This document shows positions 1 through 60,520 of a stretch of DNA of 64,000 nucleotides, one piece after another. Both the position numbers and the translations under genes were made by a program. The notes beneath the pieces were generated by a model. It was given only the letters and a program-made list of their open reading frames with translations. It was not told the origin of the DNA and searched no databases. The number at the start of each line of letters is the position of its first letter. Positions within the stretch are counted from its first letter, which is position 1. The DNA is from Stegostoma tigrinum (taxonomy: Eukaryota): positions 19,338,226-19,402,225 of the forward strand of contig NC_081354.1 of the NCBI RefSeq assembly GCF_030684315.1, written 5' to 3'.

Positions 1-269
1 CAAATGAGATACTGTATTCACAAATGTATTATTTTCAATTATGAGTAAACAAATATTTAACAGAGAGCCTTTATTAAATTATAACTGTAATCAAGGGAAT
101 CAATTAATTCAACATATGTAGTTTTTACTCAATGGATTATTATTAGTTATCTGTTTTACTGCAAGTAGCTATAGATGTAGAGACCACAACTTCATTCAAA
201 ATGTAATTCAATATGCATTTAAAATGGGAGAACATTGAAAGCTGAAGATTAGGGCCAAGAATGAGAGTA

Positions 270-633
270 GAGGTAATGGGAACTGCAGATGCTGGAGAAT
301 CCAAGATAACAAAGTGTGGGGCTAGATGAACACAGCAGGCCAAGCAGCATCTTAGGAGCACAAAAGTTGACATTTTACCCACTCCAACGTACCTGTCCGT
401 CCTCCCCGGACTGACCTATCCCTTCCCTACCTCCCCACCCATACTCTCCTCTCCACCTATCTTCTCCTCTATCCATCTTCAGTCCGCTTCCCCCTCTCTC
501 CGTATTTATTTCAGAATCCTCTCCCCATCTCCCTTTTCTGATGAAGGGTCTAGGCCCAAAACGTCAGCTTTTGTGCTCCTAAGATGCTGCTTGGCCTGCT
601 GTGTTCATCCAGCCCCACATTTTGTTATCATGA
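270..633. mobile_element. Penelope-like (PLE) pseudo-LTR fold-back mini-insertion, family A
   Basis: Inverted arms ~304-373 and ~558-629 (GATAACAAAGTGTGGGGCT...GGAGCACAAAAGTTGAC vs GTCAGCTTTTGTGCTCC...TTGTTATC). Left arm carries an extra ~30 nt tail; pyrimidine-rich spacer. Flanking AATGAGAGTA at 260-269 and 634-643. Confidence 0.8.
538..565 (+). ncRNA. Minimal hammerhead ribozyme motif (degenerate, GAAA->AAAA)
   Basis: CTGATGA-A-GGGTCTAGGCCC-AAAA-CGTC. Sister copies at 12361-12381 and 23736-23756 retain CCCGAAACGTC. Confidence 0.7.
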
Positions 634-1739: not shown

Positions 1740-2720
1740 ACATAGACCTAAAATGATCATTCCTTGTCCATTGTTTCTATCCCTGGTCACTGTCTTAAAC
1801 TCAGCAAGACTATTTACAGCCGCAGCCTTGTGTTCGACAAAATCTTGAGTTTCTGATCAGTTATCTGCATCAGCCCTGGGACCGCTGCTTCCATCTCTTC
1901 AACACTGCTTCAGTCTTATCTTATCTCAATTTGTCTGCTCAACAAAAACAAGGTTGCTGGAAAAGCTCAGCAGGTCTGGCAGCATCTGTGAAGGAAAAGA
2001 CAGAGTTAATGCTTTGGGTCCAGTGGACCTGAAATGTTATCTCTGATTTTTTCCTTCACAGTTGCTGCCAGACCTGCTGAGCTTTTCCAGCAACTTTGTT
2101 TTTGTTTCTGATTTACAGCATCCACAGTTCTTACGTTTTTTTTTCAGTTTGTCTGCTACCCTTTTATCCTCAATTCCTGATTTTGCCAATGCTCTCCTAA
2201 CGGGCCCCCTATCTTATAGCTTTGATAAACTGGTATTCATTCAAAATCCTAATGCTCATATCTTAAATCCTATGTCATACTTATGATTGCTCAGCTGCAC
2301 TGTTACCCATTGTTCACCTTCACTCTTTCCCATTCAGAAATACTCCAGTTTTAAAATCATCACTCTTGTTTTCAAATTCCACCAAGGGTTTACTATTCCC
2401 TATTGTTTGTAGCTTTCTCTAGTCCTACAGTTTAGAGAATTTAATGCTTCTCCAGCTCTGGCTCTTGCACATCCTTCATTTGAATCGCTCAATTTGTGGC
2501 TTTGGTTTCAGTTGCCTTGGTCCCAAGCTGGAACTTCTTTTCTAATTCTCTCCAAATCCTTCTACTTTTGTAAGATGTACATTAAAGCCCAGTGTTTTCT
2601 TTTTCCAAATTCTCGTGATTTCTCCATATGTGAGGCAGTGTCAAAATTGACAAAATATTATTACTCATGGCAGTCTTGGGGAAGCACCTTAAGATGTTTA
2701 TTCTATTAAATGTTCTAGAT
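1740..2720 (+). mobile_element. Old L2 LINE 3' remnant, interrupted by a PLE mini-insertion
   Basis: Degenerate L2 C-terminal coding (DFANALLTGP...DKLVFIQN; FKIITLVFKF). Confidence 0.6.
1940..2143. mobile_element. PLE fold-back mini-insertion, family B
   Basis: Arms AACAAAAACAAGGTTGCTGGAAAAGCTCAGCAGGTCTGGCAGCA / TGCTGCCAGACCTGCTGAGCTTTTCCAGCAACTTTGTTTTTGTT plus a right-hand tail. TSD TCA(A/G)TTTGTCTGCT at 1926-1939 and 2144-2157. Confidence 0.85.
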
Positions 2721-3552
2721 AGCACTCAAACCTTTTACAGAGAAACACTGAAAGGGAGATGGATGATTTCTGTTAGGGAGAGAGGGGGAGGATGGGAACT
2801 TGCCAGGCAAGTGATGTTCATATTCACATTTTTCCACTTGCTTACTTTGCCTGTATGACTGTTCTGCATCAATACATTTGTTTAAATGTCATGTCTAGAC
2901 TTAACTGCAAGATCATTAACTGAAAGAAAGGGAACTTTTTTTAATGTGGAGGGTCATGGAAAACCTGCAAAATCAGTGATAGGAGGCAATCAACAAGGTT
3001 CTGACTGGCAAAGAAATGGATAAAAAAGACTTTGAAAAAAAACATTTGTTGATTATTGCTTTGAGCAGCATTTTTTTGAGATTGTAACTGTTCTGTTCTG
3101 TGATGGTTCATTCACCAATTGTGCTGGTTACACTGTCCCAAGTAAGGTTTAATATTCATCCAGGTTTTTTATATTCATCATCATTTTCTATTTCCAATTT
3201 GAAAAACATTGCTGTGATTTTTTGATAAGTTTGCATTTTACAATGATTTAATGGGCAGCCTGTTGGAGCACAATTTGTCAGTCAGCTGGCTTTAGTTAAA
3301 ATGTAACTTTTAGTGAAAGAAGCTGCTGCTGGAAGCAAGATTTTGAAATGACTTACCATTTCCAAGTTTTATGATAAAATCGTTTCAAGCCTTATCGGGA
3401 GACTATGCATACAGTGCTCTGGCAAATCTTTGTCATTTGGTTATAAGGACCAATTTTAATTTGACACAACTGTTGGTTTTAATCCTGTAGTCCTAGTAAG
3501 ATGGCCAAATAGTGCTTCCCATGCATCATATAAAAAGCATCAGATGTGAGAT

Positions 3553-3624
3553 AACAAGGTGTAGAGCTGGATGACACCTTGTTGTCTCAGATTCTCCAGC
3601 ATCAGCAGTTCCTACATTCTCTGA
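3553..3624. mobile_element. Very short PLE fold-back insertion, family A
   Basis: GAGATAACAAGGTGT...ACACCTTGTTGTCTC hairpin plus tail AGATTCTCCAGCATCAGCAGTTCCTAC; perfect 14 bp TSD ATCAGATGTGAGAT at 3539-3552 and 3625-3638. Confidence 0.8.
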
Positions 3625-4239: not shown

Positions 4240-4475
4240 TCAAAAACAGAAGTTGCTGGGAAAACTCAGCTAGTCTGGCAGTGCCAGTCGAGAGAAAGCA
4301 AAGTTAATGTTTCAGTCCAGTGACCCTTCTACAAAATTGAAGATCTGAAGTCAATTATGAAGAAGGGTCACTGGACTCGAAACGTTGACTCTGCTTTCTC
4401 TCCACAGATGCTGCCAGCAATTTCTGTTTTCTTTACAGATTTCCAGCATTCGCAGTTCTTTTCTGTTTTATTTTA
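4240..4475. mobile_element. PLE fold-back mini-insertion, family B, with hammerhead-like core
   Basis: Inverted arms; ATGAAGA-A-GGGTC-ACTG-GACTC-GAAA-CGTT at 4357-4386. Confidence 0.75.
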
Positions 4476-8467: not shown

Positions 8468-9375
8468 AAAAATTTGCGGATGACACCAAACTTATATAGT
8501 GGACAGTGAAGAAGGTGTCCTAAGATTACAAAGAGATCTTGATCAATTGGATCAATTTGCTGAGGAGTGGCAGATGGAGTTTAATTTGGATAAATGCGAG
8601 ATGTTGCATTTTGGTCAAAAAATAAGACCAGGGCTTATACTATTAAAAGTAGGGCCTTGTACAGTATTATAGAATAGAGAGCTCTGGGCATTCAGCTACA
8701 TAATTCTTTCAAGTTTGTTTCACATGTGGATAGGATAGTTAAGAAAACATTTAGCACACTTGCATTAATTGCTCAGACCTTTGAGTATATGAGTTGGCAT
8801 GTCATGTTGAGATTGTACAGGACATTGATAAGGCCTCTTCTGGGGTATTCTGTCCAGTTCAGGGAAGGCTATTATTAAGCTGGAAATAGTTCAGAAAAGA
8901 TTTCCCAGGACGTTGCTGGGAATGGAAGGTTTGAGTTATAAGGAGAGGCTGGTTAGAATGGGACTTTTTTCATTGTAGCGTAAGAGATTGAGGGGTGACC
9001 TTATAGAGGTTTAGAAAATCATGATGGGTATACATAAGGCGAATGGCAGGTGTCTTTTTCCCTAGACTGGGGGATTTCAAGACTAGGGGACATATTTCTA
9101 AGGTGAGAGGAGAAAGATTTAAAAATGACATGAGGGGCAACCTTTTTACACAGACAGTGTTTCCTGTGTGGAATGAACTTCCAGAGGAAGTGATGGATGT
9201 GGCTACAGTTAAAATGTTTACAAGACATTTGGATAAGTACGTGAATAAGAAATATTTGGAGGGAGGGATATTGGCCAAACGTAGGTAGGTGGGACTAGTT
9301 TAGTTTGGGATTATGTTCAGCATGGACTGGTTGGACCAAAGGGTCTGTTTCTGTTCTCTATAAATCTATGACTCT
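8468..9375 (+). mobile_element. 5'-truncated CR1 LINE
   Basis: Starts at KFADDTK codons (AAATTTGCGGATGACACCAAA), runs through the ORF2 C-terminus (ORF 9043..9288) to a TCTATGACTCTA tail. Confidence 0.9.
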
Positions 9376-11389: not shown

Positions 11390-12566
11390 GACTTACTTGA
11401 TTTACATAGATGATTTGGAGTTGGGGACTGTGTGTGGTGTGTCAAAATTTGCAGATTACACTAAGGTGAGTGGTACAGCAAAGTGTGCAGAAGACACTAA
11501 AGTCTACAGAGGGATATAGATTGTCTAAGTGAGTGGGCAAAGGTCTGGCAGATGGAGTACAATGTTGATAAGTGTGAGGTCATCCATTTTGGTAGGAATA
11601 ACAGCAAAATTGACTATGTTTTAAATGGTAAAAACTTGCAGCACGCTGCTGTGCAGTGGGACTTGGGTGTCCTTGTGCATGAATCGCTAAAAGTAGGATT
11701 GCAAGTGCAGCAGGCAATTAAAAAGGAATTTTAAAACAGGGAGGCTTTGCTGCAGCTGTATCGGATCCTGATGAGGCCACACTTGGAGTACTGTGTGCAG
11801 TTTTGGTCTCCTTACTGCAGAAGGGATATACTAGCACTGGAGGGGGTGCAGAGGAGATTCACTCAGTTGATTCCAAAGTTGAGAGACTTGGATTATGAGG
11901 AGAGACTGAGTAGGCTAGGATTATACTCATTGGAATTCAGGAGAATGAGGGGAGATCTTATGGAAACATATAAGATTACGAAGGGAATTGATAAGGTGAG
12001 GCAGGGAGGTTGTTTCCATTAGCAGGTGAAACTGGGACAAGGGAGCCTAGCCTCAAAATAATGGGAAGCAGATGTAGGACTGAGGTCAGGAGGAACCTCT
12101 TCACCCAAAGGGTTGTGAATCTGTGGAATTCCCTGCCCAGTGAAGCGGTTGAAGCTACCTCACTGAATGTGTTTAAGGCAAGGCTAGATAAATTTTTGAA
12201 CAGTAAAGGAATTAAGGGTAATGGTGTACATGCGGTTAAGTGGAGATGAGTCTCAAAAAGATCAGCCATGATCTTATTAAGATAATAAAGTGTGGAGCTG
12301 GATGAACACAGCAGGCCAGGCAGCATCTCAGGAGCACAAAAGCTGACGTTTCGGGCATAGAGGGTCTAGACCCGAAACGTCAGCTTTTGTGCTCCTGAAT
12401 GCTGCTTGGCCTGCTGTGTTCATCCAGCTCCACACTTTATTATCTTGGATTCTCCAGCATCTGCAGTTCCCATTATCACAGCCAAGATCTTATTGAATGG
12501 CAGGGCAGGCTCGAGGGGCTGGATGGCCTACTCCTGCTCCTAGTTCTTATGTTATTATGTTCTTAT
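11390..12566 (+). mobile_element. Younger 5'-truncated CR1 LINE
   Basis: ORFs 11552..11734, 11747..12022 and 12010..12249 (YNVDKCEVIHFG; RPHLEYCVQFWSP; FTQRVVNLWNSLP); tail (TTCTTATG)n at ~12543-12566. Confidence 0.92.
12279..12478. mobile_element. Young PLE fold-back mini-insertion, family A
   Basis: Near-perfect ~75 bp inverted arms meeting at ~12360, right-hand tail; TSD CAGCCA(T/A)GATCTTATT at 12263-12278 and 12479-12494. Confidence 0.9.
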
Positions 12567-13269: not shown

Positions 13270-14790
13270 ATTTTTTGTTTACAAACAACAACATTTATGC
13301 ACAGTACACTTAATTTCCCCAAAGTAAACTTCTTCTCCCACCAGTAACCAATCTGGGCAATCCCCCTTTTGGTCACCCACTTCCTCCAAAAAACACAGAC
13401 AGAGAGAGCACCAGGAGGCTGCCGGGAAGGTAAGGATGTTTTCCCCACTTTAAAAAGCTTACCTCGAGCGGGAGCAGTCTTCATATATTTGGGCAGCGGC
13501 TGAACCCGAGACACTACACATGTAGTGTCTCCCACCCGCCCTCCTCCTCTAACCAAAAAATAATGACTCGGTGATGTGTAGATAAGGTAAGGCTTTTTCT
13601 ATTTCACGTTTCTTTATATATATCGTGTGATTGCCAAAAACTTTTTGGCACCTTCTTCATTTACCTAAGTTAAGTTTAATAATGTCAGGAGACCTCCCAC
13701 CCGTGTTGTGCTCGTCTTGCTCAACGTGGGAGCTCAGGGACAGGGCTGATGTCTCTGACTCCTTCACGTGCAGGAAGTGTGTCCAGCTGCAGCTCTTGTT
13801 AGACCGCATGATGGCTCTGGAGTGGCAGATGGACTCACTTTGGAGCGTACACAATGAAGAGGGGGGCGTGGATAGCACGTTTAGCAAGTTGGTCACACCA
13901 CAGATTAGGATTGCTGAGGGAGATAGCAAATGGGTGACCAAAAGGCAGAGGAAGAGCAGGAAGGCAGTGCAGGTGTCCCCTGCGGTCATCTCCCTCCAAA
14001 ACAGGTATTCTGTTCTGGATACTGTTGGGGGAGATGGCTCACCAGGGGAAGGCAGCAATAGCCAGGTTCAAGGCACCGTGGCTGGCTCTGCTGTACAGCA
14101 CAGTGGGAAAAAGAGTGGAAGGGCGATAGTCATTGGGGATTCAATTGTAAGGGGAGTAGATAGGTGGTTCTGCGGTCGAAAACGGGACTCCCGAATGGTA
14201 TGTTGCCTCCCAGGTGCATGGGTCAGGGATGTCTCCGATCGGCTGCAGAACATTCTGAAGGGGGAGGGTGAACAGCCAGTTGTTGTGGTGTGTATAGGCA
14301 CCAACGATATAGGCAGAAAACGGGATGAGGTCCTACAAGCAGAATTTAGGGAGTAAGGAGCCAAGTTAAAAAGTAGGATCTCAAAGGTAGTAATCTCAGG
14401 ATTGCTACCAGTGTCACGTGTTAGTCAGTGCAGAAATGAAAGAATATCCAGGATGAATGCGTGGCTTGAGAGATGGTGTAGGAGGGAGGGGTTCAGAGTT
14501 TTGGGACATTGGAACCGGTTCTGGGGAAGGTGGGACTATTACAAATTGGACGGTCTACACCTGAGCCGGACTGGAACCAATGTCCTTGGGGGTGCTTTTG
14601 CTAATGCTGTGGGGGAGGGTTTAAACTAATGTGGCAGGGGGATGGGAACCAAATATTGGACAGAAAAGAGGTAGTAATGAAAGCCTGTAGGGAACTAGAT
14701 AATGGAGTCAGTGTGCCTAAAGGGAATAGTAGTTGGGGAGCAGATGATGAACACAAAGGGACAGGTGATCTGAGGTGCATTTGTTTTAAT
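13270..14790 (+). mobile_element. Young CR1 LINE 5' portion (5' UTR, ORF1, start of ORF2), 3'-truncated
   Basis: GC-richer leader, ORF1, then ORF2 start MWQGDGNQ...LRCICFN (first endonuclease motif), after which similarity stops. Confidence 0.85.
13682..14629 (+). pseudogene. CR1 ORF1p: CxxC-x16-CxxC zinc finger, coiled coil and SGNH/GDSL esterase; one nonsense codon
   Basis: ATG 13682; CSSC...CRKC; IVIGDSIVRG, LPGA, IGTND, LDGLH. In-frame TAA at 14354-14356 (FRE*GAKLKSR); normal stop TAA at 14627-14629. Confidence 0.9.
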
Positions 14791-15785: not shown

Positions 15786-16034
15786 TGAGGTGGTAGGAGT
15801 TTTGCCAGCTGGCTGAAGAGCTGCCTAAAATACCCAAGCTGATTGTTTAAGGCGGGGACCGCCAAAACAAACAGCTACACCACTGGTGGACTTTCAGTTG
15901 GAATTAAGGCCCAATGGAAGCAGAAGCTTTGCCAGCAAGAACTGCTGGACACTTCAGAAGCACTTGGCTGCATCATGCAGGGGACCCTGATGGCTGAAGC
16001 TGAAAGGCTACTGAGGATTGCAGAGGAGCACTGA

Positions 16035-16625
16035 GTGTAGAAGTTGGCAGGCCATGTTGTAGCTGAGCAGAATATTAGTCAAGTCACTTTTGGAATACTA
16101 CATTCAATTCTGGTCACCCTGCTATAGGAAAGTTGCTGTTATACTTAAAAGGGTGCAGAAAAGATTTACAAGGCTGTTGCTAGGGTTGGGAGGTTTGAAC
16201 TATAGGGAGGGCTGGGGCTATTTTCCCTGGAGCTTTGAAGGCTGAGGGGTGACCTTTATTAAAGTTTCTAAAATCATGAGGCACATAGATAGGGTCAATA
16301 GCTAAGGTCTTTTTCCAAAGGTAGGGGTGTCCAAAAGTAAATGGCATAGGTATAAGGTGAGAGGGGCAAGATTTAAAAGGCATCTACAGGACAACTTTTT
16401 CATGCAGAGGGTGGTGTGTGCATGGAACGAGCTGCCAGAGTAAGTGATGGAGGCTGTACAATTACAACACTTAAAAGGCATCTGGATGGGTACATGAATA
16501 CGAAGGGCTTAGAGGGACTTGGACAAAATGCTGGCAAATGGACTTAGATTAATTTAGGATATCTGGTTGGCATGGACCAGTTTGGCCAAAAGGTCTGCTT
16601 CCAAGCTGTACGACTCTATGACCAC
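16035..16625 (+). mobile_element. CR1 3' fragment
   Basis: CAATTCTGGTCACCCTGCTATAGGAA (QFWSPCYR), TTCATGCAGAGGGTGGTG, ACTCTATGA tail. Confidence 0.88.
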
Positions 16626-17175: not shown

Positions 17176-17303
17176 AGATAGTAGGAACTGCTGATGCTTG
17201 AGAATCTGATATAACAAGCTGTAGACCTGGATGAACACAGCAGGCTAAGCAGCATCAGAGGAGCGGGAAAGCTGATGTTTCAGGTCTGGACCGTTCTTCA
17301 GAA
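17176..17303 (-). mobile_element. Single-arm PLE pseudo-LTR insertion, family A
   Basis: Tail plus arm up to the hammerhead; flanked by ATGG(C/A)AACAG at ~17166-17175 and ~17304-17313. Confidence 0.75.
17274..17301 (-). ncRNA. Minimal hammerhead ribozyme motif with intact core boxes
   Basis: Minus strand CTGAAGA-AC-GGTC-CA-GACC-T-GAAA-CA-TC. Confidence 0.6.
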
Positions 17304-22680: not shown

Positions 22681-23632
22681 TGCTCCTCTTCTTCCAATGG
22701 GTGAGTCAGCTGACAACATTTTGAGTCATGAAAAATGAACAACAGGGACCAATGTTCCATAATGGAGCTAGATTTTAAAAGCAGGATCAGGAATCTGACA
22801 CCTGGATGAAATGTGGTACCTGACACCCTCATTTTGAATGTGGTAGCTCTAATAGGCCAGGCAGAGAGGAGTTTGCTGCCCAATTTGTGAGGAAGACTGC
22901 ATTCCAGTGTCAGCAACAGCTTGGTCATACTGATGTTTGCCACTACTTTCAGGATAGAACACGCAGCTGATCATAGGGCTAGAAGGATTAATGTTCAAGA
23001 ATGGTAGCCAGGAAAAACTAAGGTAGCGCACAGATTTTGTCACAGATTACCTCAGGGCTCAATATATCTCACATTCAGTGCTTTTCCATAACCCTGTGAA
23101 TAGACTGGGAAAAAGGCAACTGCCTGTTTGCATTCATCAAAATAATAATTTACAAAATCTATTCCCGATTGTACTAACCCCCAACCAAGGTCCTAAAGGA
23201 GGTGGATAGGCCATTAGATGGCACCAGGCAGGTTATCCACTCTGTCCAACAAAAGCACTGGAAATCTGAAATAAAAACAGAAAATGCTGGAGCAAGCCTG
23301 GCAGCATTTGTGGAGAAAGAAAGAGACCAATACTGTATTTTTCCAGACTGTTAAATACTAAGCACACGGCATGGAAATAGAGCATAGCTGATTTTGCCAA
23401 GTCAGATGTTGAAATTTGGGAGGAAAATAACTTGAAGGTTTTCATTCACGCGATGGGTTTTCAATTAAGTCTGGTTCTAACTTCATCAGCCTGCTTGATT
23501 AACATTGAATTTTGTCAGGTGCAGGTTTGTTTGTTCTAACATTAACAAAGGCATTTTCAACTTTACATTAAGAAAAAATTCAATTTTATTTTCCCCAGGT
23601 CTACATGTAATTCATAGTAACATCTAGATGCA

Positions 23633-23822
23633 GAGATTGTAGGAACTGCAGATGCTGGAGAATCTGAGATAATAAGGTATAGAGCTGGATGAACACAGCA
23701 GGTCAAGCAGCATAAGAGGAAATTTTTTCTCAAGTAGGGTCTAGGCCCGAAACGTCAGCTTTCCTGCTCCTCTGATGCTGCTTGGCCTGCTGTGTTCATC
23801 CAGCTCTATACTTTGTTATCTC
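23633..23822. mobile_element. PLE fold-back mini-insertion, family A
   Basis: Left tail plus arm; right arm with degenerate hammerhead CTCAAGT-A-GGGTCTAGGCCC-GAAA-CGTC (23729-23756); perfect 14 bp TSD AACATCTAGATGCA at 23619-23632 and 23823-23836. Confidence 0.9.
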
Positions 23823-26328: not shown

Positions 26329-28157
26329 TTATAGTTTTCAAGAAGATTTGTATTTTGGTTTGCAGGTGAGGTTGTAGACATGCTTGCTGAGCTGGTGGGT
26401 TTGATTGCAAATGTTTTCTCACCCTGCTAGATAACTTTGTCAGTGCGCCTCCGATGAAGCCTCAGTATTCTGTCTGTCTTGTTATTTATATGCCTCAGTT
26501 TGTTGGGGTGTTTGGGATCACTTCCAGTCCTGTTTCTCAGTGGTTTGTACACAAGGTCTAATTTAATGTGTTTGTTGGAGTTCTGGTTGGAATACCAGGC
26601 CTCTAGGAATTCCCTGGCATGTCTCTGTTTGGCTTGTGCAATTATGGAGGAGTTGTCCCAGTCCAATTCTTGACCCTCGTTGTCTTTGTGTAGTGAGACA
26701 AATGAGAAATGGTTGTGTCTCTTGGTGGCTAGTTGGCGTTCGTGTATCTGTATTGTCAGTTTTCTTTCAGTTTAGCCTGTGTAGTGTTTCTCACAGTCCT
26801 TGCAATGTATTTTGTATATTACACCAGTTTTGCTGGTTTACCATTGCCAGTAGCTGTCGTAGGGTGGTTGTTGGTTTGTGGGCTATTCTGACACCTAGAG
26901 GTCTGAGTACGCTTGAGATCATCTCTGAAATGTTCTTGATATACAATAAAGTGATTAATGATAAGTAACAGCAGGTTGTGCTTTTTGGGTATCCATTCCT
27001 TTTGGAGACTCTGTATGGGTCCTCCTGTTCTGATTTGCGTAGTTCCAGTTTGCTGCAATGTGTTGTGGCTCATTTAAATAGCATCCTGATGCTGCTCCAT
27101 TTGTGGGGCATTGGGGTGGTTGCTACTGTAATTGAGCATGGGGTCCGCATCTGTGGTCTTTCTATATATACACACATTAGTCTGGAGTTCCCTGTTGTTT
27201 TTGCATTGTACCAGTACAACCAGGAAGGGTGGTTAGTCATTGTTCTCCTCCTTTTTTGTGAATTTTATCCCAGTGGGTTTCTTCTAGTTTTATGTGTTTA
27301 ACAAATACAAAGATGTCACCTACATATCGGACCCAAAGTTTGGGTTGTGTAGTGGGGAAGTGCTGTCTATTCTAACCTTTGCACTACTGCTTCTGCAATC
27401 AGTCCTGATATTGGGGAACACACTGGTGTTCTGTTGAAGGTGAAGTGAGTTGTGAGGCACAGAGGTAGTAGTTTCATGGTGGTGTCCTTATTAATGTTGT
27501 CGGTATTCTGGACAGCCTGTCTACTTGATTTGTCCTGTAGTGTGGCAATTGTCTCTTTAGCTAGGTCAATGTTTATGGATGTAAATAGTGTTCTTATGTC
27601 AAAGGATATCATCACCATGTCCTCTTCTATCCTAGTGTCCTTGGTCATGTTGAGGAATTCTTGGGATGAGTGGATGGAGAGGGTAGTGTTGTCCACTAGA
27701 TATTTCAATTTCTGTTGTAGTTCTTGGGCCAATAAATATGTTGATGTACCTGGTAGTGAGACAATGGGTCTGAGCGAGAACTCCCAGTTTGTGCACCGTG
27801 GAGTGTCGAATGAAGCGAGGTGTGTTCGAACCCTCTGGCTTCATTTTTGGGTAGTCTGTTTTGATGATGTCTCCTGAGTTGTGCAATTTCTTCAGGGTTG
27901 TTGTAATCTGGGTCCCTCACTATGGTGTTGAATCTACCGCCATCTAGGGGTAAGTGTCAGTATATGCGAGTAGTGCATGAGCTTTCTTGATGTATTGGGC
28001 TCTATTGAAGATTACTGTCATGCTTTCTTCATCCACACCTCAAAAAATTGAGGCATATAAAAAGAATAAGCAGGACAGAACACTGACACTTCACTGGAGG
28101 CGCAGTGATGCTGATAGCTAGCAGGGTGATGAAATATTTGGAACTGAACCCACTGGC
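26329..28157 (-). mobile_element. Penelope-like retroelement (Penelope/Poseidon type), 5'-truncated, with inverted pseudo-LTRs
   Basis: RT motifs MISFDIRTLFTSI, SPISGLIAEAVVQRLE, LWVRYVGDIFV (~27305-27340); GIY-YIG VIYKIHCKDCEKHYTG (~26775-26825); AREFLEAW. Inverted repeat ~26385-26500 vs ~28045-28157; flanking TGAGTAAA(T/C)ATCT at 26316-26328 and 28158-28170. Confidence 0.92.
26427..28015 (-). pseudogene. Frameshifted PLE reverse transcriptase / GIY-YIG endonuclease ORF
   Basis: Pieces 27705..27920, 27632..27886, 27367..27732, 26819..27073 and 26427..26666 are collinear PLE domains with frameshifts; catalytic YVDD reads YVGD. Confidence 0.88.
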
Positions 28158-28814
28158 TGAGTAAACATCTCTTCTTCTTTGTCTTCAACCAGAGAGCCTG
28201 TATTCTTAAACTTTGTCCCTGGTTTTGGTTTCCCCGCAAGAAGAAACTCCTCCCAGTGCTCTCAGAATCTCATAGGATTCAATTGGATCCCCACTTATTG
28301 CTCTAAGCTCCATGGGATACACACAAACCTAACTAGTTCAACCTATCTTCAGAACACAAGCCCTTCTTCCTGGGAAGGAGTGAACGTGCTACAAACTGTT
28401 TCCAAAGCAATTATATTTTTTTTCCAAATAAGACAACCAGACCTGTACATGATACTCTAGATGTTGTCTCACCAATACCTGTCCAGCTGCAGTAAAAGCT
28501 CCCCACTTTTATATTCCTTTGCTCTTGCAATAAATGACATTTCAATTGCTATCCTAATCACTTGCTATATCTCTGTACTAATTTTATGTGAGTCATGTAC
28601 CAGGATACTCAGATCTCTATGTACTATCAAATTCTGTAATCTCGCTCTCATTTAAAAACAATAAGGCTTTTTTACTCTTCCTGCCAAATTAGACAAATTC
28701 ACATTCACCCACTTTACACTCCTTCTGCCAATCTTTTAGCCATTCAGTTAACCTGTCGATACCCCTGCGCAGACTCTCTATCTCGTCTTGACAATTTACT
28801 ATCTTACTTATTGT

Positions 28815-29022
28815 AAAGCAAAGAACTGTGGACGCTGGAGATCAAAAACAAATAAAAAACAGAATTTGCTGCAGAAACTCAACATGGTCTGGCAGCATCT
28901 ATGAAGAGAATTGTCCTTTTCTATTCTGAAGTGTCACTGAACTCGAAACATCCACTCTGTTTTTCCTTTCACAGGTGTTGCCAGATTTGCCGAGTTTGTC
29001 TTGTAATTTCTGTTTTCATTTG
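28815..29022. mobile_element. PLE fold-back mini-insertion, family B (degenerate)
   Basis: Tail plus arm AAAGAACTGTGGACGCTGGAGATC...GGTCTGGCAGCATCT; opposite arm TGTTGCCAGATTTGCCGAGTTT; remnant CTGAAG..TCACTGAACTCGAAAC. Confidence 0.7.
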
Positions 29023-32000: not shown

Positions 32001-33418
32001 CAATGAATGTTAGCAAACTCACTTTAAAACTATGGTAAATCTTCAACAATTCTTGACTTTAAAATAGTTCTTTTCTTGTTCTAGTTCACAATGAAACATA
32101 CAGCAAATAAAAATATACATACACTCTTTGCATTATTTTATATATTTTTTAGACCTTAAAAAGTACTAAGCAGGAATAGGATCTTCTTGTTTCTTACTTT
32201 GTCTTTTATGGGGGGAGGTTAGATTTCTCAGGAAAAAAATGACAGGAAGCAAAGATCTTTTTATTTCTCTTCTGTTTATGCTAATCTCTTCGCAGAGTTA
32301 CTTTGCAGACTAGGACCCCTAAGTCGAGTTTAAGTGTTCTTGTCTTTGTGAGATGGGCTGTTGGAAGATGATCTAGAAGCAGTTCCACTATAAAAGAGAG
32401 AATAAAATTCATAATAAAGTTGTACACAGAATTGTGTGAATTAAAAACAAGTCCATCAGAGTCAAAATCAGATTTTCAAATTCTCTCAGTAACTCAAAAG
32501 TGAGATGATGAAATTCAATGCAAAGGAGAAAAGAATTCTATTCAAAAGACGTGGGTTTTCACTGCTTGGTCTAGACACTCAGTGGCCAGGGTTCTCGCTA
32601 ACATTTATTTGCAGGCTTTCAGGTTGGAAATCTTACTTTATCAAGAGGACCACTTCAAGATTGCTTTCTCCCTCCCACAAAACAAATACACTATGTACCT
32701 ACTATACTGGATAGCCACTCTGGTCTATCCAATAGAGTACTGATATTCCTGGCTGAGGTACTGCCACACAAACATGATGGTCATTCTCTGGCAAGTCCTA
32801 GGATTATTTCTGGGATATTATGACCAACACAACTTGAGTGGTCTCCTGTATTTTCACATATTGAACCTCTGGAGAGAAAACATACTCCTAAAAGAATACC
32901 ATTAGTTAACAAATTACTCAATTAGTATCTCAACCTATTTAACAGTGTGGGTGTTGTGTGCAATTAAAATTGCAGTTTTCTGCTAAACTATGTCTAACAT
33001 TGACTACTGAATCAATCAGCACACAAACATGTATCTCTGTTTCTGCTAAAGAATTGACAGACATTTTTCTATTCTACTTGTGTAAATGCTTTTATTGTTT
33101 TATGCATTGCATTGGCGCAGATTGAAAAAATAGTAACAAAGAAAACAACTCAGCATGTGTCGTTCTATTTTTAGTTGATGAGAATGATTAATTCTCAGTC
33201 AGCTGAAGCAGTGAACAAGTACAGTATGATTCCACTAACAATGACCTTGTAACAAGGCAGTAAAAATCATGCGTGTGTAATTCAGAAATAATCTAAAAGC
33301 TTCTATTACATAAATGTCAATGCAAAAACTTCCTCAGATCCAAATGTTAAGATCATGGTGCAGTTAGTCATCATAGAATAAATGCATAAGGTAGACATGT
33401 TTATTGAAGGAAATTGAA

Positions 33419-33745
33419 GGCAGCCCAGTGGCTCACTGGTTAACGCTGTTACCTCACAGCACCAGAGACCTGGGTTTGATTCCAGCCTTAGCGGACTGTC
33501 TGTGTGGAGCGTGCATGTTCTCCCTGTCTCTCTGTGGGTTTCTGCCAGATGCTCTGGTTTCCTCCCACAGTCCAAAGATGTGTGTGTTACATGGATTGGC
33601 CATGCTAAATTACCCATAGCATTCAGGGATGCTTGGGTTAGCCATGAGAAATGTAGGGTTAAAGGGATGGGTCTGGGTGGGATGCTCTTCGGAGGGTTGG
33701 TTGGACTGACTGGCCTGTTTCCACACTTTAGGGATTCTACATTAA
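33419..33745 (+). mobile_element. HE1-type (V-SINE) tRNA-derived SINE
   Basis: A box TGGCTCACTGG, B box GGTTTGATTCC, core TGTGTGGAG..TGCATGTTCTCCC...TTCCTCCCACAGTCCAAAGATG, CR1-like tail. Confidence 0.85.
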
Positions 33746-40129: not shown

Positions 40130-40560
40130 TGGGAGATTTTAGCTATGAAGAAAGAGCAGATAGGTTGGGTTTGTTTTCACTGAAAAATGCAGGAGGTTAA
40201 GGAGCAACCTGATAGAAGTTTATAAGATTGTGAATGCACGGATAGAGTGAAAAGTGAGGCTTTTTCTCCAGCATGGAGGCGTCAATTACTAGGGGACACA
40301 AGTTCAAGGTGTATAGAGGCCTGAGGAAATTTAAGAGATGTGCGAGATGCTCATACAAACAGTGGCAAGTGCCTGGAATGTGCTGCCAGAGGAGGTTGTG
40401 GAAGCAGGCACAGTTGCAGCATTCAAGCACCTGAACAGGAAGGGAATAGAGGGATACAGATGCTGTAAGAGAAGACAGTTTTCATATGCAAGGGTAAAAC
40501 GTGTCGGCACAGGTTTAGAGGGCCAAAAGGCCTGTTTCAGTGCTGTACTGTTCTTTGTTC
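40130..40560 (+). mobile_element. CR1 3' fragment
   Basis: ORF 40338..40586 (AWNVLPEEVVEAGTVAAFK); TGTTCTTTGTTC tail. Confidence 0.8.
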
Positions 40561-40569
40561 ATATTCTAG

Positions 40570-41450
40570 ACATACAAGGAAACTGACCCTTTTGTCCAAC
40601 CAATCCATGCTGACCATAATCGTAAACTAAACTAGTCTCACCTGCCTGCATTTGACCAATAACCCATCAAACATTTCTTATTCATGTACTTATCAAATGT
40701 CTTAAGCGTTGTAACTGTACCAACATCCAACACCTCTTCTGGAAGTTCAGTGCACACATGCACCACTCTCTGTGCAAAACAGTTGACCCGCATTGTTTTT
40801 TTAAGCTCTTTCTCCTCTCACATTAAAAATATCACCTGTGTCTTTAAACCCCGCTATTCTATGGAAAAGACACCTGCCATTCACCTCATCTATGCGCCTT
40901 ATGATTTTATAAGCATCTACAAGGACACTCCTAAACCTCCTATGTTCCAGTGAGAAAAAGTCCCAGCCTATCCAGCCTCTTCTTATAACTCACCTTCCAC
41001 TCCCAGCAACATCCTGGTTGAACCCTCTCCAGCTTACTTATCCTTCCTGTGACAGCGCGAGCAAAACTAGACAGTGTTATAGAAGAAACCTCACCAAATT
41101 TCTGAATAAGCTCAACATGACCAACTCCTATACTCAGAGGTCTGAACAATGAAGGCAGCCATGCTAAAGGCCATCTCAACCAACCTGTTTACATGAAATG
41201 CAAACTCCAAAAAATTATGTACCTGAACTCCCAGGTGTCTCTTTTCTACAACACCACCCAAGGCCCTACTTCTAATTGTCCAAGTCCTGCCCTTGTTTGT
41301 TTTACCAAAATGCAATACTTCGCCATTATCTAAATTAAACTCTGTTAGCCATTCCTCAGCCCATTGACCCAATTAATCAAGATTGTTTTGTAATCTTAGA
41401 TAACCTTCTTCACTGTCCACTACACCACAAATTTTGGTGTCATCTGCAAA
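40570..41450 (-). mobile_element. 5'-truncated CR1 LINE, tail-to-tail with the previous copy
   Basis: ORF 41112..41372 (WAEEWLTEFNLDNGEVLHFG); begins at FADDTK codons; same subfamily as 8468-9375. Confidence 0.88.
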
Positions 41451-45380: not shown

Positions 45381-45389
45381 GAATAACAA

Positions 45390-45573
45390 ACAGAAATTGC
45401 TGGTGAAACTCAGCAGGTTCAGCAGCATTTGTGGGAAGAAAGCAGAATTAACGTTTCCACCCAGTGACTCTTCTGATGAAGAGTTAGCTCTACTTTCTTT
45501 CCACAGATGCTGCCAGATCTGCTGATTTAAAACAGGAGTTTCTGGTTTTGCTTCAGATCTCCAGCATCCGCAT
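45390..45573. mobile_element. PLE fold-back mini-insertion, family B
   Basis: Arms CAGAAATTGCTGGTGAAACTCAGCAGG / AGATGCTGCCAGATCTGCTGA, central CTGATGAA; flanks AATAACA(G)AACAGAAA at ~45382 and ~45574. Confidence 0.7.
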
Positions 45574-46285: not shown

Positions 46286-46568
46286 GGGTGGCATGGTTGC
46301 TCAGTGGTTAGCACTTCTACCTCGGTGCCAAGAACCCTGGTTTGATTCTGGCCTTGGCTGACTGCAAAATCCACGCAGTCACACTCTCCCTGTGGCTGCA
46401 TGAGTTTGCTCTGGTTTTCTCCCACAGTCCAAAGATGTGCATGTTGGGTAGGGTGGCCATGGAAAATTGCCCTAGAATGTGCTGGCTAAGTTGATGCAGT
46501 GTTAGGGTAGGGGATATGAGTCTGGGGGAACGCTCTTTGGAGGGTCAGTGTGGACTTAATGGGCCGAA
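46286..46568 (+). mobile_element. HE1-type SINE
   Basis: GGGTGGCATGGTTGCTCAGTGGTTAGCAC, GGTTTGATTC, CCCACAGTCCAAAGATGTGC. Confidence 0.85.
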
Positions 46569-47364: not shown

Positions 47365-47545
47365 AAAAAATGACCAAGAACTATGGTTGCTGGAAGTCAG
47401 AAACACAGACAGAAATTGCTGGGAAAAAAGACATAGCCAGTGCGGAGAGAAAGCAAAGTTAACATTTCGGGTGCAGTGATTTTTCTTCAGAACTCTGATA
47501 CTGCCAGACCTGCTGAACTTTTCTAGCAGTTCCTGTTTGCATTCA
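47365..47545. mobile_element. PLE fold-back mini-insertion, family B, in a CR1 3' UTR
   Basis: Minus-strand GTT-CTGAAGA-...-CCC-GAAA-TG-TT-AAC at 47458-47493; short inverted arm to the right. Confidence 0.7.
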
Positions 47546-47799: not shown

Positions 47800-49580
47800 A
47801 GGGGGAGTGGCGTTTTTGATTAGTGATAACATTACAGCAGTATTTAGGGAGGATATTTCTGGGAATATGTCCAGGTAAGTTATTTGGAAATAAGAAAAGA
47901 ATGATCACCTTATTGGGATTGTACGAGAGACACCCCCCCAATAGTCAGAAGGAAATGGAGAAATAAATTTGAGGAGATCTCAGTTATTTGTAAGAACAAT
48001 AGGGTGGTTATGGTAGGGAATTTTAACTTTCCAAACAAAGACTGAGACTGCCAGAGTATTAAGGGTTTTTTTGGAGAGGAATTTAAGTGCGTACAATATA
48101 ATTTTCCGATCCAGAATGTGGATGTACCTATGAGAGAAGGCGTAAAACTTGACCTACTGTTGGGAAATAAGGCAGGGCAGGTGACTGAGGCGTCAGCAGG
48201 GGAGCACTTCGGGAGGAGTGACCATAATTCTATTAGTTTTAAAACATTAATGGTAAAGGATAGACTGGATCTAAAAGCTAAAGTTCTAAACTGGAAGAAA
48301 GCTAATTTTGATGGTATTAAGCAAAACATTCAACAGTTAATTGGGGGCAGACGTTTGCAGGTAAAGGGTCGGCTGGAAAATGGGAAGCATTCAAAAATAA
48401 GATAATGAGAGTCCAGAAACTGTATGTTCCTGTTAGGGTAAAGGGCAAGGCTGGTAGTTGTACGGAATGCTGGATGACTAGAATAAGAAGGAAGCAGATG
48501 TCAGGTAGAGACAGCTGAGATCATGTGAATCTCTGGAACAGTATAAAGGAAATAGGAGTACATTGAAGAAGAAAATCAGTAGGGCGATTTAGGGCCATAA
48601 GATAGCTTTGGCAAATACAGTTAAAGAGAATCCAAAGGGATTCTACAAATACTTATTCTAGTCATCCAGACAAATGGGAGGTGCTGCATTTTGGAAAAAC
48701 AAATCAGGCCAAGAGTCATTCATTTAATGGCAAGGTCCTGGGGAATGTTGCTGAACAAAGAGACCTTGGAGTGCAGGTTAGTATTTCCTTGAAAGTGGAG
48801 TTACAGGTAGATAGGATAGTGAAGAAAGTGTTTGGTATGCTTGCCTTTATCGGTCAGGGCATTGAGTATTGGACTTGAGAGGTCATATTGCAACTATATA
48901 GGGAATTAGTTAGGCCACTATTGGAATATTGCATGCAATTCCGGTCTCCCTGTAATTGGAAGGATGTTGTGAAACTTGAAAGGGTTCAGAAAAGATTCAA
49001 AAGGACGTTGCTAGGGTTGGAGGGCTTGAATTATAGAGAGAAGCAGAGGAGACTGGGGCTATATTCCCTGGAACGTCAAAATGCTAAGAGGTGACCTTAT
49101 AGAGGTTTACAAAATCATGAGGGGCAATGAACAGGGTAAATAGCCAAGGTCTTTTCCCCAGGGTGGGGACCCAAAACTAGAGTACTTGGGCTTAAGGTGA
49201 GAGGGAAAAATTTAAAAGGGACTCAGGGTAACAAAGTGTGGAGCTGGATAAACACAGCAGGCCAAACAGCATCCAGCTCCACACTTTGTTATCTTGGATT
49301 CTCCAGCATCTGCAATTCCCATTATCTCAGGGACTCAGGGTGTAGCTTTCTCATGCAGAGGGTGGTCCTTGTATGGAACGAGCTGCCACAGGAAGGGGAG
49401 GAAGCTGGTATAATTACAACATTTAAAAAGGCATCCGAATGGGTATATGAATAGAAAAAGTTTAGAGGGATACCGTGCAAATGCTGACAAATGGGACTAG
49501 ATTTATTTAGGATATTGGTCGGCATGGACGAGTTGGACTGAAGTGTCTGTTTCCATGCTGTATATCTCTATGACTCTAAG
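47800..49580 (+). mobile_element. CR1 ORF2 with large internal deletion
   Basis: Endonuclease (VMVGNFNFP, LDLLLGN, GRSDHNSISF) to ~48650 (ENPKGFYKY), then directly post-RT (LHFGKTNQ, RPLLEYCMQF) and tail. Confidence 0.88.
49230..49328. mobile_element. Short PLE fold-back insertion, family A
   Basis: TAACAAAGTGTGGAGCTGGAT / ATCCAGCTCCACACTTTGTTA hairpin plus tail; perfect 13 bp TSD AGGGACTCAGGGT at 49217-49229 and 49329-49341. Confidence 0.9.
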
Positions 49581-50719: not shown

Positions 50720-51016
50720 GGGGTGGCACGGTAGCTCAATGATTAGCACTGCAGCCTCACAACACCAGGGACCCAGGCTCGATTCCAGCCTCGGGCAATT
50801 GTCTGTGTGGAGTTTGCACATTCCCCCAGTGTCTGCGTGGGTTTCCTCCCACAGTCCAAAAATGTGCAGGCTAGGTGGATTGGCCATGCTAAATTGCCCT
50901 TAGTATTCAGGGGTGTGGGGGTTATTGGGGGGTGGGTCTGGGTGGGACATATCAAGGGGCGGTGTTGACTTGTTGGGCCGAAGGGCCTGTTTCCACACTG
51001 TAGGGAATCCAATCTT
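50720..51016 (+). mobile_element. HE1-type SINE, well preserved
   Basis: A box TAGCTCAATGA, B box GGCTCGATTCC, V-core, tail GGGCCGAAGGGCCTGTTTCCACACTGTAGGGAATC. Confidence 0.9.
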
Positions 51017-56069: not shown

Positions 56070-56590
56070 TTAACACTTAATGGTATGGCACTGGGGAGCA
56101 TGGCTGAACACAGACCTTGGAGTGCAAGTTCATAGGTCCTTGAAAGTGGAGTTAAAGTAGACAGGTTAGTGACTAAAGTGCTTGGTACACTTGTCTTTAT
56201 TGGTCAGGATAGATGTTGGGATGTTATGTTGCAGCTGTACAGCACATTGGTTAGGCCACTTCTGGAATACGGTGTTCAATTCTGGAAAGCTGCTATAGAA
56301 AAGATGTTGTAAAACTTGAAAGGGCTCAGAAAAGATTTCCAAGAACATTGTCAGCATTGGAGGGTTTGAGCTATAGGGAGAGACTGAACAGGCTGGGCCT
56401 ATTTTCCCTGGAGTGTCAGAAGCTAAGACGTGACCTTATAGAGGTTTCTAAAATCATGAATGGCATGGATAGGCCAAATGGACAAGGTCTTCTTCCTGCC
56501 GTAGGCAAGTCCAAACCGAGAAAGTACAGGTTTATGGTGGGAGGGGAAAATTCAAAAGGGACCCAACGAGCACCATTTTCATGCAGGAAT
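56070..56590 (+). mobile_element. CR1 3' fragment
   Basis: ORF 56348..56641 (LEGLSYRERLNRLGLFSLE...RDLIEV). Confidence 0.85.
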
Positions 56591-56699
56591 GAGCTGTTCC
56601 AGTTACATCTACAACATGGGCATCTACTCAAAAATGTGTAAAATTATCCAGCTATGTCCTGCCATGAAAAGCAGTAAACAGCCAATTACCCCTCATTAG

Positions 56700-57310
56700 T
56701 TGGGTGATGTGCTGCTGCTGTAACATGTGGAAGCTGCTGAATACGAATGTGTAATTTGTAGTAAGAGTTTTCAACCGAAGGAAATTTGGATCTGAATTGA
56801 GGAGCTAAAATTTGAGTTGCAAACATCGGATCACATCAGAGAAGGGGGTACTTTGTTCTAAAGGTCAGTTTAAACCCACAGTCTAGGTATTTCAGAGTGG
56901 TGTGATCAGGGATAGAGGGGTGTTGCTGTAGTCGAGGCAAGTACGAGGATGAGGTGGTTACAACAGAGTCCCTGCAACTGTCCAACAGTTACGAGGTTCT
57001 TGCAAGCTGTGCAGATGAGAGTGGGGACAAGAGGAAGGATGAGCAAACCGACTATGGCACATTTGCACAGGGACCAATTCAAGTAGGGAGAGACAACAAG
57101 AATGCAGGGAACAGCATGATTAGTTCTCTGCAGCTATGAGCATGATGGCCTGCCTCGTGCTAAGGTTAAAGATATCTTCTCATCATTGTAGAAGAACTTG
57201 AAGAGCTCCTGGATCGATCCACTGATCACTGTCCACATTGATGCCAATGACATTGGTAGGATTAGAAAAGGAGGTTCAGCTGAAGAATATTAAACAGTTC
57301 AGAGTGTAAA
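56700..57310 (+). pseudogene. Highly degenerate CR1 ORF1 fragment
   Basis: CCCCNMWKL...CSK; LQLSNSYEVL; GTCCACATTGATGCCAATGACATTGGT (VHI..NDIG). Confidence 0.55.
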
Positions 57311-57429
57311 AGTAGAGGTTTTGCTCAAAATTATACAAGGCAGAAGTCACTACACAGCTGGAATACTGTGAAACATTTTGGCCTCGTTATCTGAGGAAGG
57401 ATATACTGGCATTGGAAGCAATTGAGAAG

Positions 57430-57757
57430 GTTCTTTCTTCATGGCATGACAGCATCACTGCAAGGCAACATTTATTGTCTAGAGGGTTGTTAAGAAACAA
57501 CCACATTGCTGTGGGTCTGAAATCACATGTAGGACAGACCAAATCAGGATGGCAGTTTCATTCCCTAAAGAACATTAGTGAACCATAGTTTTTCCAACAA
57601 TTGACGATGATTCACAGTCGTTATGAGATTCTTAATCCCAGACACTTTTCAAATTCTACCATCTGCCATGGTAGGATTTGAACCCAGGTCCCCAGAACAT
57701 TATCTGGATCTCTGGATTAACAGTCCAGTGATAATACAACTTGGCAATCACCTCCCC
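57430..57757 (-). mobile_element. tRNA-derived SINE inserted in a CR1 fragment (57310-58075)
   Basis: Minus strand head GGGAGGTGATTGCC...GGGTTCAAATCCTACC (B box); CR1 coding breaks at GAGAAGGTTC and resumes at ACTAGACTTGTACC. Confidence 0.7.
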
Positions 57758-58079
57758 CCATTACTAGACTTGTACCAGGTACAGATGGATTGTCTTAAGA
57801 GGCAAGGCTGGGTAGGATGGGCCTGTGCTCGTTCAAATTGAGTAAAATGAGAGGCGATCTCATTGAGACATGCAAGATCCTTACAGGGCTTGACAGAATA
57901 GGTGTAGAAAGACTTTTCCATCAAAAGGAAACAACCTAAGTCAAGAGGATGCTTTCTCAGAATAAGCAGTGATTATTTAAGGAGTTGAGGATGATCAGAT
58001 TAGCCGTGATCTTACTGAACGTGGTAGCAGACTCATTGAGCTGAATGGCCGACTTCTCCTCCTTTGTTTCATGGTTTGA

Positions 58080-58535
58080 AGGTCACAGAGATGTACAGTA
58101 TAGAAACAGATGCTTCAGTCCAACTCATCCATACCGACCACATATCCTAAATTAACCTAGTGCCATTTGCCAGCATTTGGCCCATATCCCTCTAAACCCT
58201 TCCAATTCGTGTATCATCCTTTTACATGTTGTAGATGCATCAGCCTCCAAAAAATTCCTCTGGCAGCTCATTCCATTCATGCACCACTCTCTACATGAAA
58301 AAGTTGCCCTTCTGGTCCTTTTAAATCTTTCTCCTCTCACCTAAGACCTAGCATCGAGGTTGGACTCTTCTACCCTGGCAAAAAGACCTCTATTCACGCC
58401 GCTCATGATTTTATAAACTTCTATAAGCTCACCCCTTGGGCTCTGGTGCTCCAGGAAAAATAGCCCTACTCTGTTCAACCTCTCCCTATAGCTCAACCAC
58501 TCCAACCCTGACAACTTCCTGGTAATTTTTTTCTG
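58080..58535 (-). mobile_element. CR1 3' fragment
   Basis: ORF 58152..58340 (VRGERFK...); 3' UTR matches 16520-16620. Confidence 0.85.
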
Positions 58536-58539
58536 CAGG

Positions 58540-60520
58540 TGTTAAATTTGAATGAGGAAAATTATGAAAACAAGAAGCACAAGTTGGCTACTCGGATTGA
58601 GGAACTATTTTATAAGGCATGACTGAACATCAGCAATGGATTGTCGTTAACAAATTATTACTTGACTTACAGCAATTATACATTCCTTCAAAAGGTGCAA
58701 AAGCCAAATGGTCAACCATGGCTAACAAAAGAAGTTAAAGACTGTATAAAATTAAGAGGCACACAACGTGGCCAGAAATATTAATAACGCTGGAGATTAG
58801 GAACATTGTAGAATATACTAAAAGGAGGACCAAGAAATTGATGAGAATAAATACTACATATGTAAACTAGCAAAAAACAAAAATGAATCATATAGGTACT
58901 TAAAAAGGCAATGTCTGGCTATGACAAATGGGACCATTAAGAGTCAAGAGAATTTATAATAGGAAAGGAAGAATGGTAGAGAAGCTAAATTAGTGTTTTA
59001 TGACTATTTTCAATAAGGAAGTTACAAGTAATCTCTCAGAATTAGAGCCTCAAATGACTAGGGAGAATGGAGAACTGAAGATAACTCGTAACAATATTGG
59101 ACTGGAGAAATTAATAGAACTGAAAGTTGTTAAGTCTGCAGGACCTGATGGCTGACTTTTGAGAATGTTGAAAGCGGTGGTGAAAGAGACAAGTTGATGC
59201 ATTGGTAATCATCTTCCAAAGTCTGTCATGTTCTTGTCCGGTCACTGCAAATTTGCAGTTTGCAGATATCACCTATTTAAAAAAGAGCAAGACAAAAACT
59301 ATTGACACGTCAGTTTACATCAGTAGAAGGGAAACAATGCAATCTATCAAAGAAATTGAAAGGACACTTGAATAAAAATGATTTGATTGTGCATCATCTG
59401 CATGGACTTACAAATAGAAAATCATGTTTGATAAACCTGGAATTTTTTTAAAAAGGATATTATGAACAAAATTGACAGAGGGAAGTTGACAGATGTGGTG
59501 TATTTGGGTTTTCAGAAGGCTTTTGGTAAGGGGCCTTATGAGATTGGTTAGCAATCACATGGTACCAGTGGCAATGTACTGGCATGCATTAAAGGATTAG
59601 CTAACGGACAGAAAACAATAGGAATAAATGGGTCACTCGTTGGTAGACTGTGACTAGTGAGGTACTTGAGCTCTAGAGATTCACAATATATAAGTGACTT
59701 GAATATGGGGACCAAATCTAATATGATTGCATATGATATAAAACTAAGTAGGAATGTGTGTTGAAAACCATAAGTTGGTTTCTAGATGATTCAGATAGGC
59801 TCAGTGGTTGGGCAATAGCATGGCAGATTGAATAATGTGAAAAAAACATTAGGTTGTCCTCTGTGCAGAATGTTCCCTAAATGGTAAGAGGTTGGAAACT
59901 GTAGATACACAAAGGACTTGGATCCCTTGTCAATGAGTCACTTAAGGCTAGCATATAGGAATAGCCAGCTATTTGTACGGTAATTAGAATATGTATTGCA
60001 ATAGGACTTGAGTACAGAATTACTGAAGTCATTCTGCAATCATATTGGAGGTTGGTTAGGCTGCACTGCAACTAACGGGTAATTTGGTCCCATTTCAAAG
60101 ATATTATTGCCATAGAAAGAGTGCAAAAGGGCCACCAGACTTTTCTCAGGATGGCAGACTATTCGGTGAAGAGAGATTGGGGAAACTGGACCTGTATTCT
60201 CTAGATTTTCAACAAATGAGATGAGATATGATCTCATTCCAAAATAGAAGACAGCATAGATGGAGGTAGGATATCGCCCCTCGGCTGAGGTGTCTAGGCT
60301 TGGATTATAATTTAAAAATGAAGTTGCCATTGGAAGCTGAGATGAGAAGTGCTTTTACTCAGAGGGTAATGAATATTTGAAATTCTCCACCCAAGAGGGC
60401 TGTGTAAGTTCAGTCTTTGAGTATACTTAAAGTTGAGGTTGATAATTTTTACATCAATAATGGTGTAAAAGATTGGGGAAATAGTGTGCACAAAAGTCAT
60501 TGGAGTGCTTGATCAACCAT
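58540..60520 (+). mobile_element. Old CR1 ORF2 remnant
   Basis: AAGTCTGCAGGACCTGATGG (KS.GPDG), GATGTGGTGTATTTGGGTTTTCAGAAGGCTTTTG (DVVYL.FQKAF), TTTACTCAGAGGGTAATGAAT (FTQRVMN). Confidence 0.75.

Follow-up and report, generated by a model that had tools for sequence, protein, structure and literature searches.

Minimal hammerhead ribozyme copies within Penelope-like element fragments in a 64-kb stretch of the Stegostoma tigrinum genome

Minimal hammerhead ribozymes (min-HHRs) of metazoan Penelope-like elements (PLEs) were described by Cervera and de la Pena in 2014 (PMC4209133). In the accessible part of that paper, the conserved features are an extra base at 9/10.1, the G10.1-C11.1 pair and a palindrome at 15.2-16.2, and the consensus is given as CUGANGAH-G...C-GAAAN-palindrome-NUH. 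The same part reports low cleavage of dimers, places the motif in the Xena, Poseidon and Neptune elements of fish, and includes in its alignment examples with a helix I of 2 bp. The dimer cleavage is credited to Lunse et al. in an excerpt of a review (PMC6765202), and the function of the ribozyme in EN+ PLEs is called unclear in the accessible part of another paper (PMC8557442). For the Poseidon element PAc of Anolis, the accessible text of Frangieh et al. 2024 (PMC11167929) reports cleavage that was assayed in vitro, was assisted by the protein and was dispensable for insertion, whereas the present study deals with sequence only.

We analyzed a stretch of 64,000 nucleotides (64 kb) of shark DNA, hereafter called the window, in which a sequence-only reading had pointed out six copies of a hammerhead motif. 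The motif shares with the metazoan PLE min-HHRs the CUGANGA box followed by an extra base, the G10.1-C11.1 pair, the GAAA box, a palindrome without loop III, and NUH. It also shares with them the short helix I, the position in the pLTR, and the occurrence of the copies mostly as solitary units or opposite-strand pairs. The sequence-only reading had supposed that helix III would arise from the pairing of the ACGU of two copies, and this is the same as the published min-HHR model, as set out in the accessible part of PMC4209133. On the other hand, the novelty that it implied is not borne out, because both the palindrome at 15.2-16.2 and an additional base between 9 and 10.1 are already standard features there. 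That is, this kind of ribozyme was already described in 2014, and what stands out is only the copy number: about 127,000 intact palindromic cores extrapolated here against 4,000 in the coelacanth and 9,000 in Xenopus, numbers called remarkable in that part of the paper but obtained with different descriptors. Sharks are absent from the searched supplement file of PMC4209133, and descriptions of these motifs in sharks were not found in our literature searches, which ran outside subscription journals and Repbase. The present data add three shark-type families with a very high copy number to the known range of the PLE min-HHR, and this depth of copies allows population-style tests of the role of the PLE ribozyme.

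The families, which we call F1 (with F1a and F1b), F2 and F3, can be compared with described elements as follows. F1 and F2 share with Neptune/Nematis-type EN+ PLEs an RT followed by a C-terminal GIY-YIG and a linker with CX4CxxC (accessible part of PMC8557442), and they also share a partial tandem, an inverted 5' arm and a tail, which in EN+ PLEs is optional and 30-40 bp long. Some PLEs also contain a spliceosomal intron in their pLTR. The features in common with PAc are a ribozyme at the junction of pLTR and ORF and two 3' ends that correspond to the tail (accessible text of PMC11167929). F3 in particular resembles PAc in that it has a Poseidon-like ORF without a linker zinc finger and an AC-rich tail. 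Canonical type-I hammerheads and non-LTR retrozymes have the catalytic core and the dimer model in common with the present motif, whereas the 6-bp helix I, loop III, an Rfam match and, in the window, tandem monomers are absent here.

Each of the six sites proposed in the window was found to be occupied by a copy of one repeat superfamily. The consensus that had been proposed agrees with the genome-wide majority, but it is a composite, and the strict descriptor of an intact core matched nowhere in the whole window. The CUGANGA core, which had been presented as common to the copies, is complete in three of the six and damaged or absent in the other three, and the boxes or stem II are broken in all six. 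Decay at CpG sites was seen and was statistically confirmed, but it affects three of the six copies (538, 17301 and 47490), that is, half rather than most. The window copies are thus unable to form an active core and are inert leftovers.

The copy at 538..565 (+) is a min-HHR of family F1a, a Neptune-like PLE, with a helix I of at most 2 bp. It consists of the core at 538-544, the extra A at 545, stem II at 546-557, ACGU at 561-564 and C17 at 565, and its G12 is changed to A at base 558; G12 is the general base of the hammerhead according to the accessible part of PMC6155905. Upstream of the ribozyme lies a C-rich 3' UTR remnant of the PLE at 377..537 (+), a sequence that forms the spacer between the end of the GIY-YIG ORF and the motif in loci L002-L030. 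The pLTR sequence past the predicted cut site occupies 566..629 (+), lacks the tail and has, of the two usual 3' ends, the shorter one. An inverted, 5'-truncated arm of the same insertion, which carries the tail and is broken within GAAA, occupies 270..376 (-), and the whole insertion is bounded by a 10-bp target-site duplication (260..269 on the left and 634-643 on the right, +).

The copy at 4357..4386 (+) belongs to family F2 and has C3 changed to A, a 5-bp stem II and a GUU triplet; its inverted partner lies at 4334-4239 (-). The F1 copy at 12361..12381 (+) starts at the extra A and lacks CUGANGA because it was cut at the fold-back junction with its inverted arm at 12361-12272 (-). The F1b copy at 17274..17301 (-) retains CUGAAGA, with G10.1 changed to C, C11.1 to U and G16.2 to A, so that both the 10.1-11.1 pair and the palindrome are lost. 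Another F1b copy at 23729..23756 (+) has a damaged core (G5 to C, A9 to U), an inverted arm at 23720-23630 (-) and a 14-bp flanking duplication at 23619 and 23823. The F2 copy at 47461..47490 (-) retains CUGAAGA, with stem II broken and C15.2 changed to U.

The window contains further copies that had not been listed before. An F2 fold-back insertion at 1941..2130, joined within stem II and without CUGANGA, is flanked by a 10-bp duplication at 1930 and 2148, and degenerate F2 fold-backs occupy 28855..29018 (motif remnant at 28926-28952, +) and 45385..45554 (motif remnant at 45475-45450, -). Two F1 fold-backs consist solely of sequence downstream of the ribozyme or of the tail: the former lies at 49222..49330 with a 13-bp duplication, and the latter at 3544..3623 with a 14-bp duplication. 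Flanking duplications of 10-14 bp were found at five window insertions, that is, the insertion at 538 and four other units. A broken, 5'-truncated PLE of family F3, which is Penelope/Poseidon-like, occupies 26337..28172 (-) with remnants of RT and GIY-YIG; it carries a decayed min-HHR at 26443-26410 (-), and its inverted arm lies at 28057-28172 (+). A tblastn search of the window with F1 proteins gave no ORF remnants. Head-to-tail motif monomers or tandem arrays were not found in the window, where the copies are single or inverted and kilobases apart.

In order to estimate the abundance of the motif in the genome (3.2 Gb in 835 contigs), we sampled 98 arbitrary 10-kb stretches (980 kb) with a descriptor that required only the CUGANGA and GAAA boxes and, between them, a stem of 4 bp or more, and used five dinucleotide shuffles as the control. 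Core plus stem II gave 85 matches in 980 kb against 1-5 per shuffle, and when NNUH was placed right after GAAA, 78 matches remained against 0-1 per shuffle. The extra base at 9/10.1, which had been noticed in the window copies, was present in 82 of the 85 matches (74 A, 7 U, 1 G). The ACGT palindrome was likewise confirmed: among 263 copies, positions 15.2-16.2 were CG in 165, the CpG-decayed CA or TG in 89 and other letters in 9, and UH follows this palindrome without a loop III. The G10.1-C11.1 pair closing stem II is present in the family consensuses. With the strict descriptor, the 980 kb yielded 39 intact cores with the palindrome, from which about 127,000 are extrapolated genome-wide; helix I was at least 3 bp in only 4 of the 39, corresponding to about 13,000. 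A single F1a 28-mer occurs exactly 92,176 times in the genome. A pattern barring G at 10.2 matched 16,450 times against 47 for the reversed control, and among the 100 matches listed most belonged to F3, the third family, which has U as the extra base and a 6-bp stem II unrelated to those of the other families. In an Rfam scan of the window, where the scanned copies are all broken, the hammerhead family was absent among the 8 matches at E<=10; the best matches were miRNA hairpin models below threshold, which we rejected as fold-back artefacts.

The association with PLEs that had been proposed for the motif proved correct, since in related loci the motif lies directly downstream of an ORF with RT and GIY-YIG. 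Many of the best 30 relatives of the 538 copy run upstream through the C-rich UTR into RT/GIY-YIG frames, and locus L009 has a 428-aa open frame that extends from RT motifs through GIY-YIG. Matches in linked loci to GIY-YIG (PF01541, E=0.015 and 5.9e-4) and to RVT_1 (PF00078, E=2.3e-5) were below the curated cut-offs, which we attribute to the broken state of the copies. Two other RT fragments had no match in Pfam, and a PDB sequence search with an RT fragment gave 0 matches. Upstream walking led to a partial tandem (L229) whose motif is located before the ORF start, that is, in the pLTR, with a unit of about 3.5 kb and a Thr/Pro-rich low-complexity stretch ahead of the RT. Among the loci examined, this partial tandem was all that we obtained; a complete pLTR-ORF-pLTR copy whose frame is intact was not found.

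The linker joining RT to EN of the F1 ORFs has CX4CxxC, and CX2-5CxxC at this place is the mark of Neptune/Nematis in the accessible part of PMC8557442. F1 and F2 thus appear to be Neptune/Nematis-type EN+ PLEs, the clade being assigned from the linker motif alone. F2 (the copies at 4357 and 47490) is related to F1 and sits downstream of older PLE ORF remnants. The F3 motif also follows a GIY-YIG ORF, one in which the linker CX4CxxC was not seen. Apart from these features, locus L062 (1-2832, oriented) is a 2.8-kb palindrome of a young F1a element with 99.4% identity, and the L067 copy shows 98%; the palindrome reflects either very recent activity or an assembly artefact.

The insertions are truncated at the 5' end, many of them carry an inverted arm, and they have target-site duplications. 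Their 3' ends, counted from C3, cluster at +89 to +94 and at +124 to +128, giving two ends about 35 nt apart, which is the PLE tail. The ragged 5' ends scatter between +100 and positions past -480, continuing into the ORF, and most copies are short and contain little besides the ribozyme and the tail. The main pile-up of 5' ends is at the 5' edge of the ribozyme, where 69 of the 157 ends lie between -10 and +9 relative to C3, a figure that is partly inflated by F1b copies whose upstream sequence differs from the reference. This pile-up fits the finding in the anole that uncut RNA is the main template (accessible text of PMC11167929). Fold-back at CTAG or AGCT is seen at many junctions. The F1 stem II (e.g., window 546-557) is near-palindromic, and its exchange between two molecules would give 12 bp; the centre of this stem (+14) is the fold-back point of several insertions.

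We analyzed decay in 144 F1a copies whose loci had been picked independently of the ribozyme. Of 576 sites at the two core CpGs, 88 carried transitions, compared with 63 of 3,024 sites at other C or G (p=5e-34). Changes of the non-CpG core (62/1,440) and of the flank (90/2,880) showed that the core is no better kept, which indicates that the dispersed copies decay neutrally. A sub-lineage defined by G12A was considered and rejected, since C11.1 to U (21) and G12 to A (23) are equally common in the 144 copies. The consensuses of F1a, F1b, F2 and F3 all retain both core CpGs; in view of their hypermutability this retention is consistent with, and points to, selection in the parent lineages.

The length of helix I differs between the families: F1 has 2 bp, F3 has 3 bp and F2 has 4 bp. 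Its pair 2.2-1.2 was C-G in 81, U.G in 74 and U-A in 29 (n=198), and its pair 2.1-1.1 was U-A in 198, A-U in 31 and U.G in 20 (n=263). The helix I pairs thus seem to change together across families, with counts that cover all loci, some of them selected on motifs, that are inflated by shared descent and that represent about 3 or 4 independent changes. Covariation of stem II, which the sequence-only reading expected among subfamilies, was weak within the related families, where it is only one-sided (F1a against F1b or F2), and was two-sided only against F3, which belongs to another PLE clade.

According to nearest-neighbour energies, which ignore core contacts and help from protein, core and cleavage strand of the F1a monomer are predicted to pair with each other (-11.4 against -3.6 kcal/mol), and an inactive duplex is the predicted optimum for the F1a dimer (-38.0 against -5.5 kcal/mol). 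The active-type dimers of F2 (-11.5 against -25.2 kcal/mol) and F3 (-16.7 against -33.6 kcal/mol) were likewise predicted to be less stable than other folds. The dominant young family F1a, with its 2-bp helix I, is therefore predicted to form an inactive hairpin, which counts against the reading preferred below.

If cleaved RNA had been copied, the 5' ends of copies would pile up at N1.1. The F1a mismatch copies numbered 5,943 at C17, 2,512 at U16.1 and 2,405 at N1.1, and among the first 30 listed for each, truncations accounted for 25, 10 and 6, respectively. The excess of F1a 5' ends at the predicted cut is thus about 6-10 fold, but it is confounded by microhomology. In eleven of the 30 listed C17 copies the AGCT palindrome serves as the fold-back point (four of these junctions are counted on both arms), and about 7 further ones have AG or AGC in common with the joined sequence; these features indicate that the excess is largely due to microhomology. 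In F3, for which the test is a letter-count proxy without flanks, mismatch copies numbered 359 at C17, 278 at U16.1 and 226 at N1.1, and a hand count of transversion-type letters in the first 100 listed (32, 34 and 51) gave about 115, 95 and 115 copies, that is, no excess. We consider it improbable that this genome, with one of the largest known hammerhead loads (about 100,000 intact cores), records the ribozyme at work in its copy ends, such that the about 5,000 F1a copies starting at the predicted scissile bond, 6-10 times the neighbouring bases, would be reverse-transcribed products of a hairpin-locked ribozyme opened by the element protein. If it were true, the copy ends would be the first genomic evidence of PLE hammerhead cutting in vivo.

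Taken together, it is very likely that the motifs in the window are dead, neutrally decaying end fragments of PLEs, each with a copy of a minimal type-I hammerhead, and that in the active parent cleavage after GUC/GUU is predicted to require the pairing of two copies via ACGU and probably also help from the element protein. As judged from the literature, reverse transcription would start at an internal site, some 90 or 125 nt downstream of the first base of the ribozyme, and would often stop near its 5' edge, which may leave very many short stubs bearing the ribozyme. Dimer cleavage would process tandem transcripts and appears to be unneeded for insertion. Within the same PLE origin, it is possible, though we rather doubt it, that the F1a ribozyme is locked or vestigial; that is, U7, the 2-bp helix I and the self-complementary stem II would favour the inactive hairpin, and the motif would be kept not for cutting but for its structure, as a signal at which RT stops, the sequence folds back or protein binds. 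The predicted inactive folds of monomer and dimer, the 5'-end pile-up near C3 (in a set that includes F1b copies) and the junctions at CTAG or AGCT speak for such a role, as does the result in the accessible text of PMC11167929 that mutants of the anole Poseidon ribozyme had no effect on insertion in vitro. However, the F1a consensus retains all catalytic bases and both hypermutable CpGs, and published min-HHRs with a 2-bp helix I exist (accessible part of PMC4209133). Moreover, the calculated energies leave out core contacts and protein, and in the anole the ribozyme needs its protein for cleavage (accessible text of PMC11167929).

The shortness of most copies, with ribozyme plus tail, might also suggest an independent non-autonomous family, either a non-LTR retrozyme or a SINE-like one, that spreads via small circular RNAs; animal retrozymes have been proposed to be PLE derivatives, and they are reported from one chondrichthyan in the accessible part of 10.64898/2026.07.22.740005. 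The ragged 5' ends reaching the ORF and the single or inverted window copies, kilobases apart rather than in head-to-tail arrays, make this very unlikely. An accidental likeness to the hammerhead in MITE-like or miRNA-like fold-back repeats, which the sub-threshold miRNA models and the many fold-back copies might recall, is effectively refuted by the counts against the reversed (16,450 vs 47) and shuffled (78 vs 0-1) controls, and by the recurrence of the core, the extra base, G10.1-C11.1 and ACGU in a family whose stems are unrelated and whose PLE ORF is a different one. The chance that one or more of the window copies were domesticated as host ribozymes is close to nil: we found no evidence for it in these copies, and the window has 0 intact copies and a neutral decay pattern.

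Several other features were observed around these copies. At window 4387-4410 (+), and in the F2 loci L032-L060, the cut site is followed by an overlapping branch-point-like TTRAC, a pyrimidine run and CAG immediately before ATG. By the splice consensus, this F2 segment resembles a 3' splice site that would overlap the 3' strand of the ribozyme; F1b lacks the AG of this segment. A 241-aa frame at 13631-14356 (+) has a weak match to GDSL/SGNH (PF13472, E=0.0026) and is presumably ORF1 of a CR1-type LINE. An interspersed repeat (D3, D5, D7-D11) occurs in many copies, at 8500-9350, 16030-16620, 40200-41420, 48860-49570 and 56200-58540, which we assume to be 3' ends of CR1-type LINEs; the fold-back at 49222-49330 is inserted inside the copy at 48860-49570. 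A SINE-like repeat (D12, D20) lies at 33418-33640, 46413-46497 and 50726-50924, and a sub-threshold tRNA-like match of 24 bits was obtained at 57663-57746 (-). The D12/D20 copies and the tRNA-like match are likely to be SINE heads.
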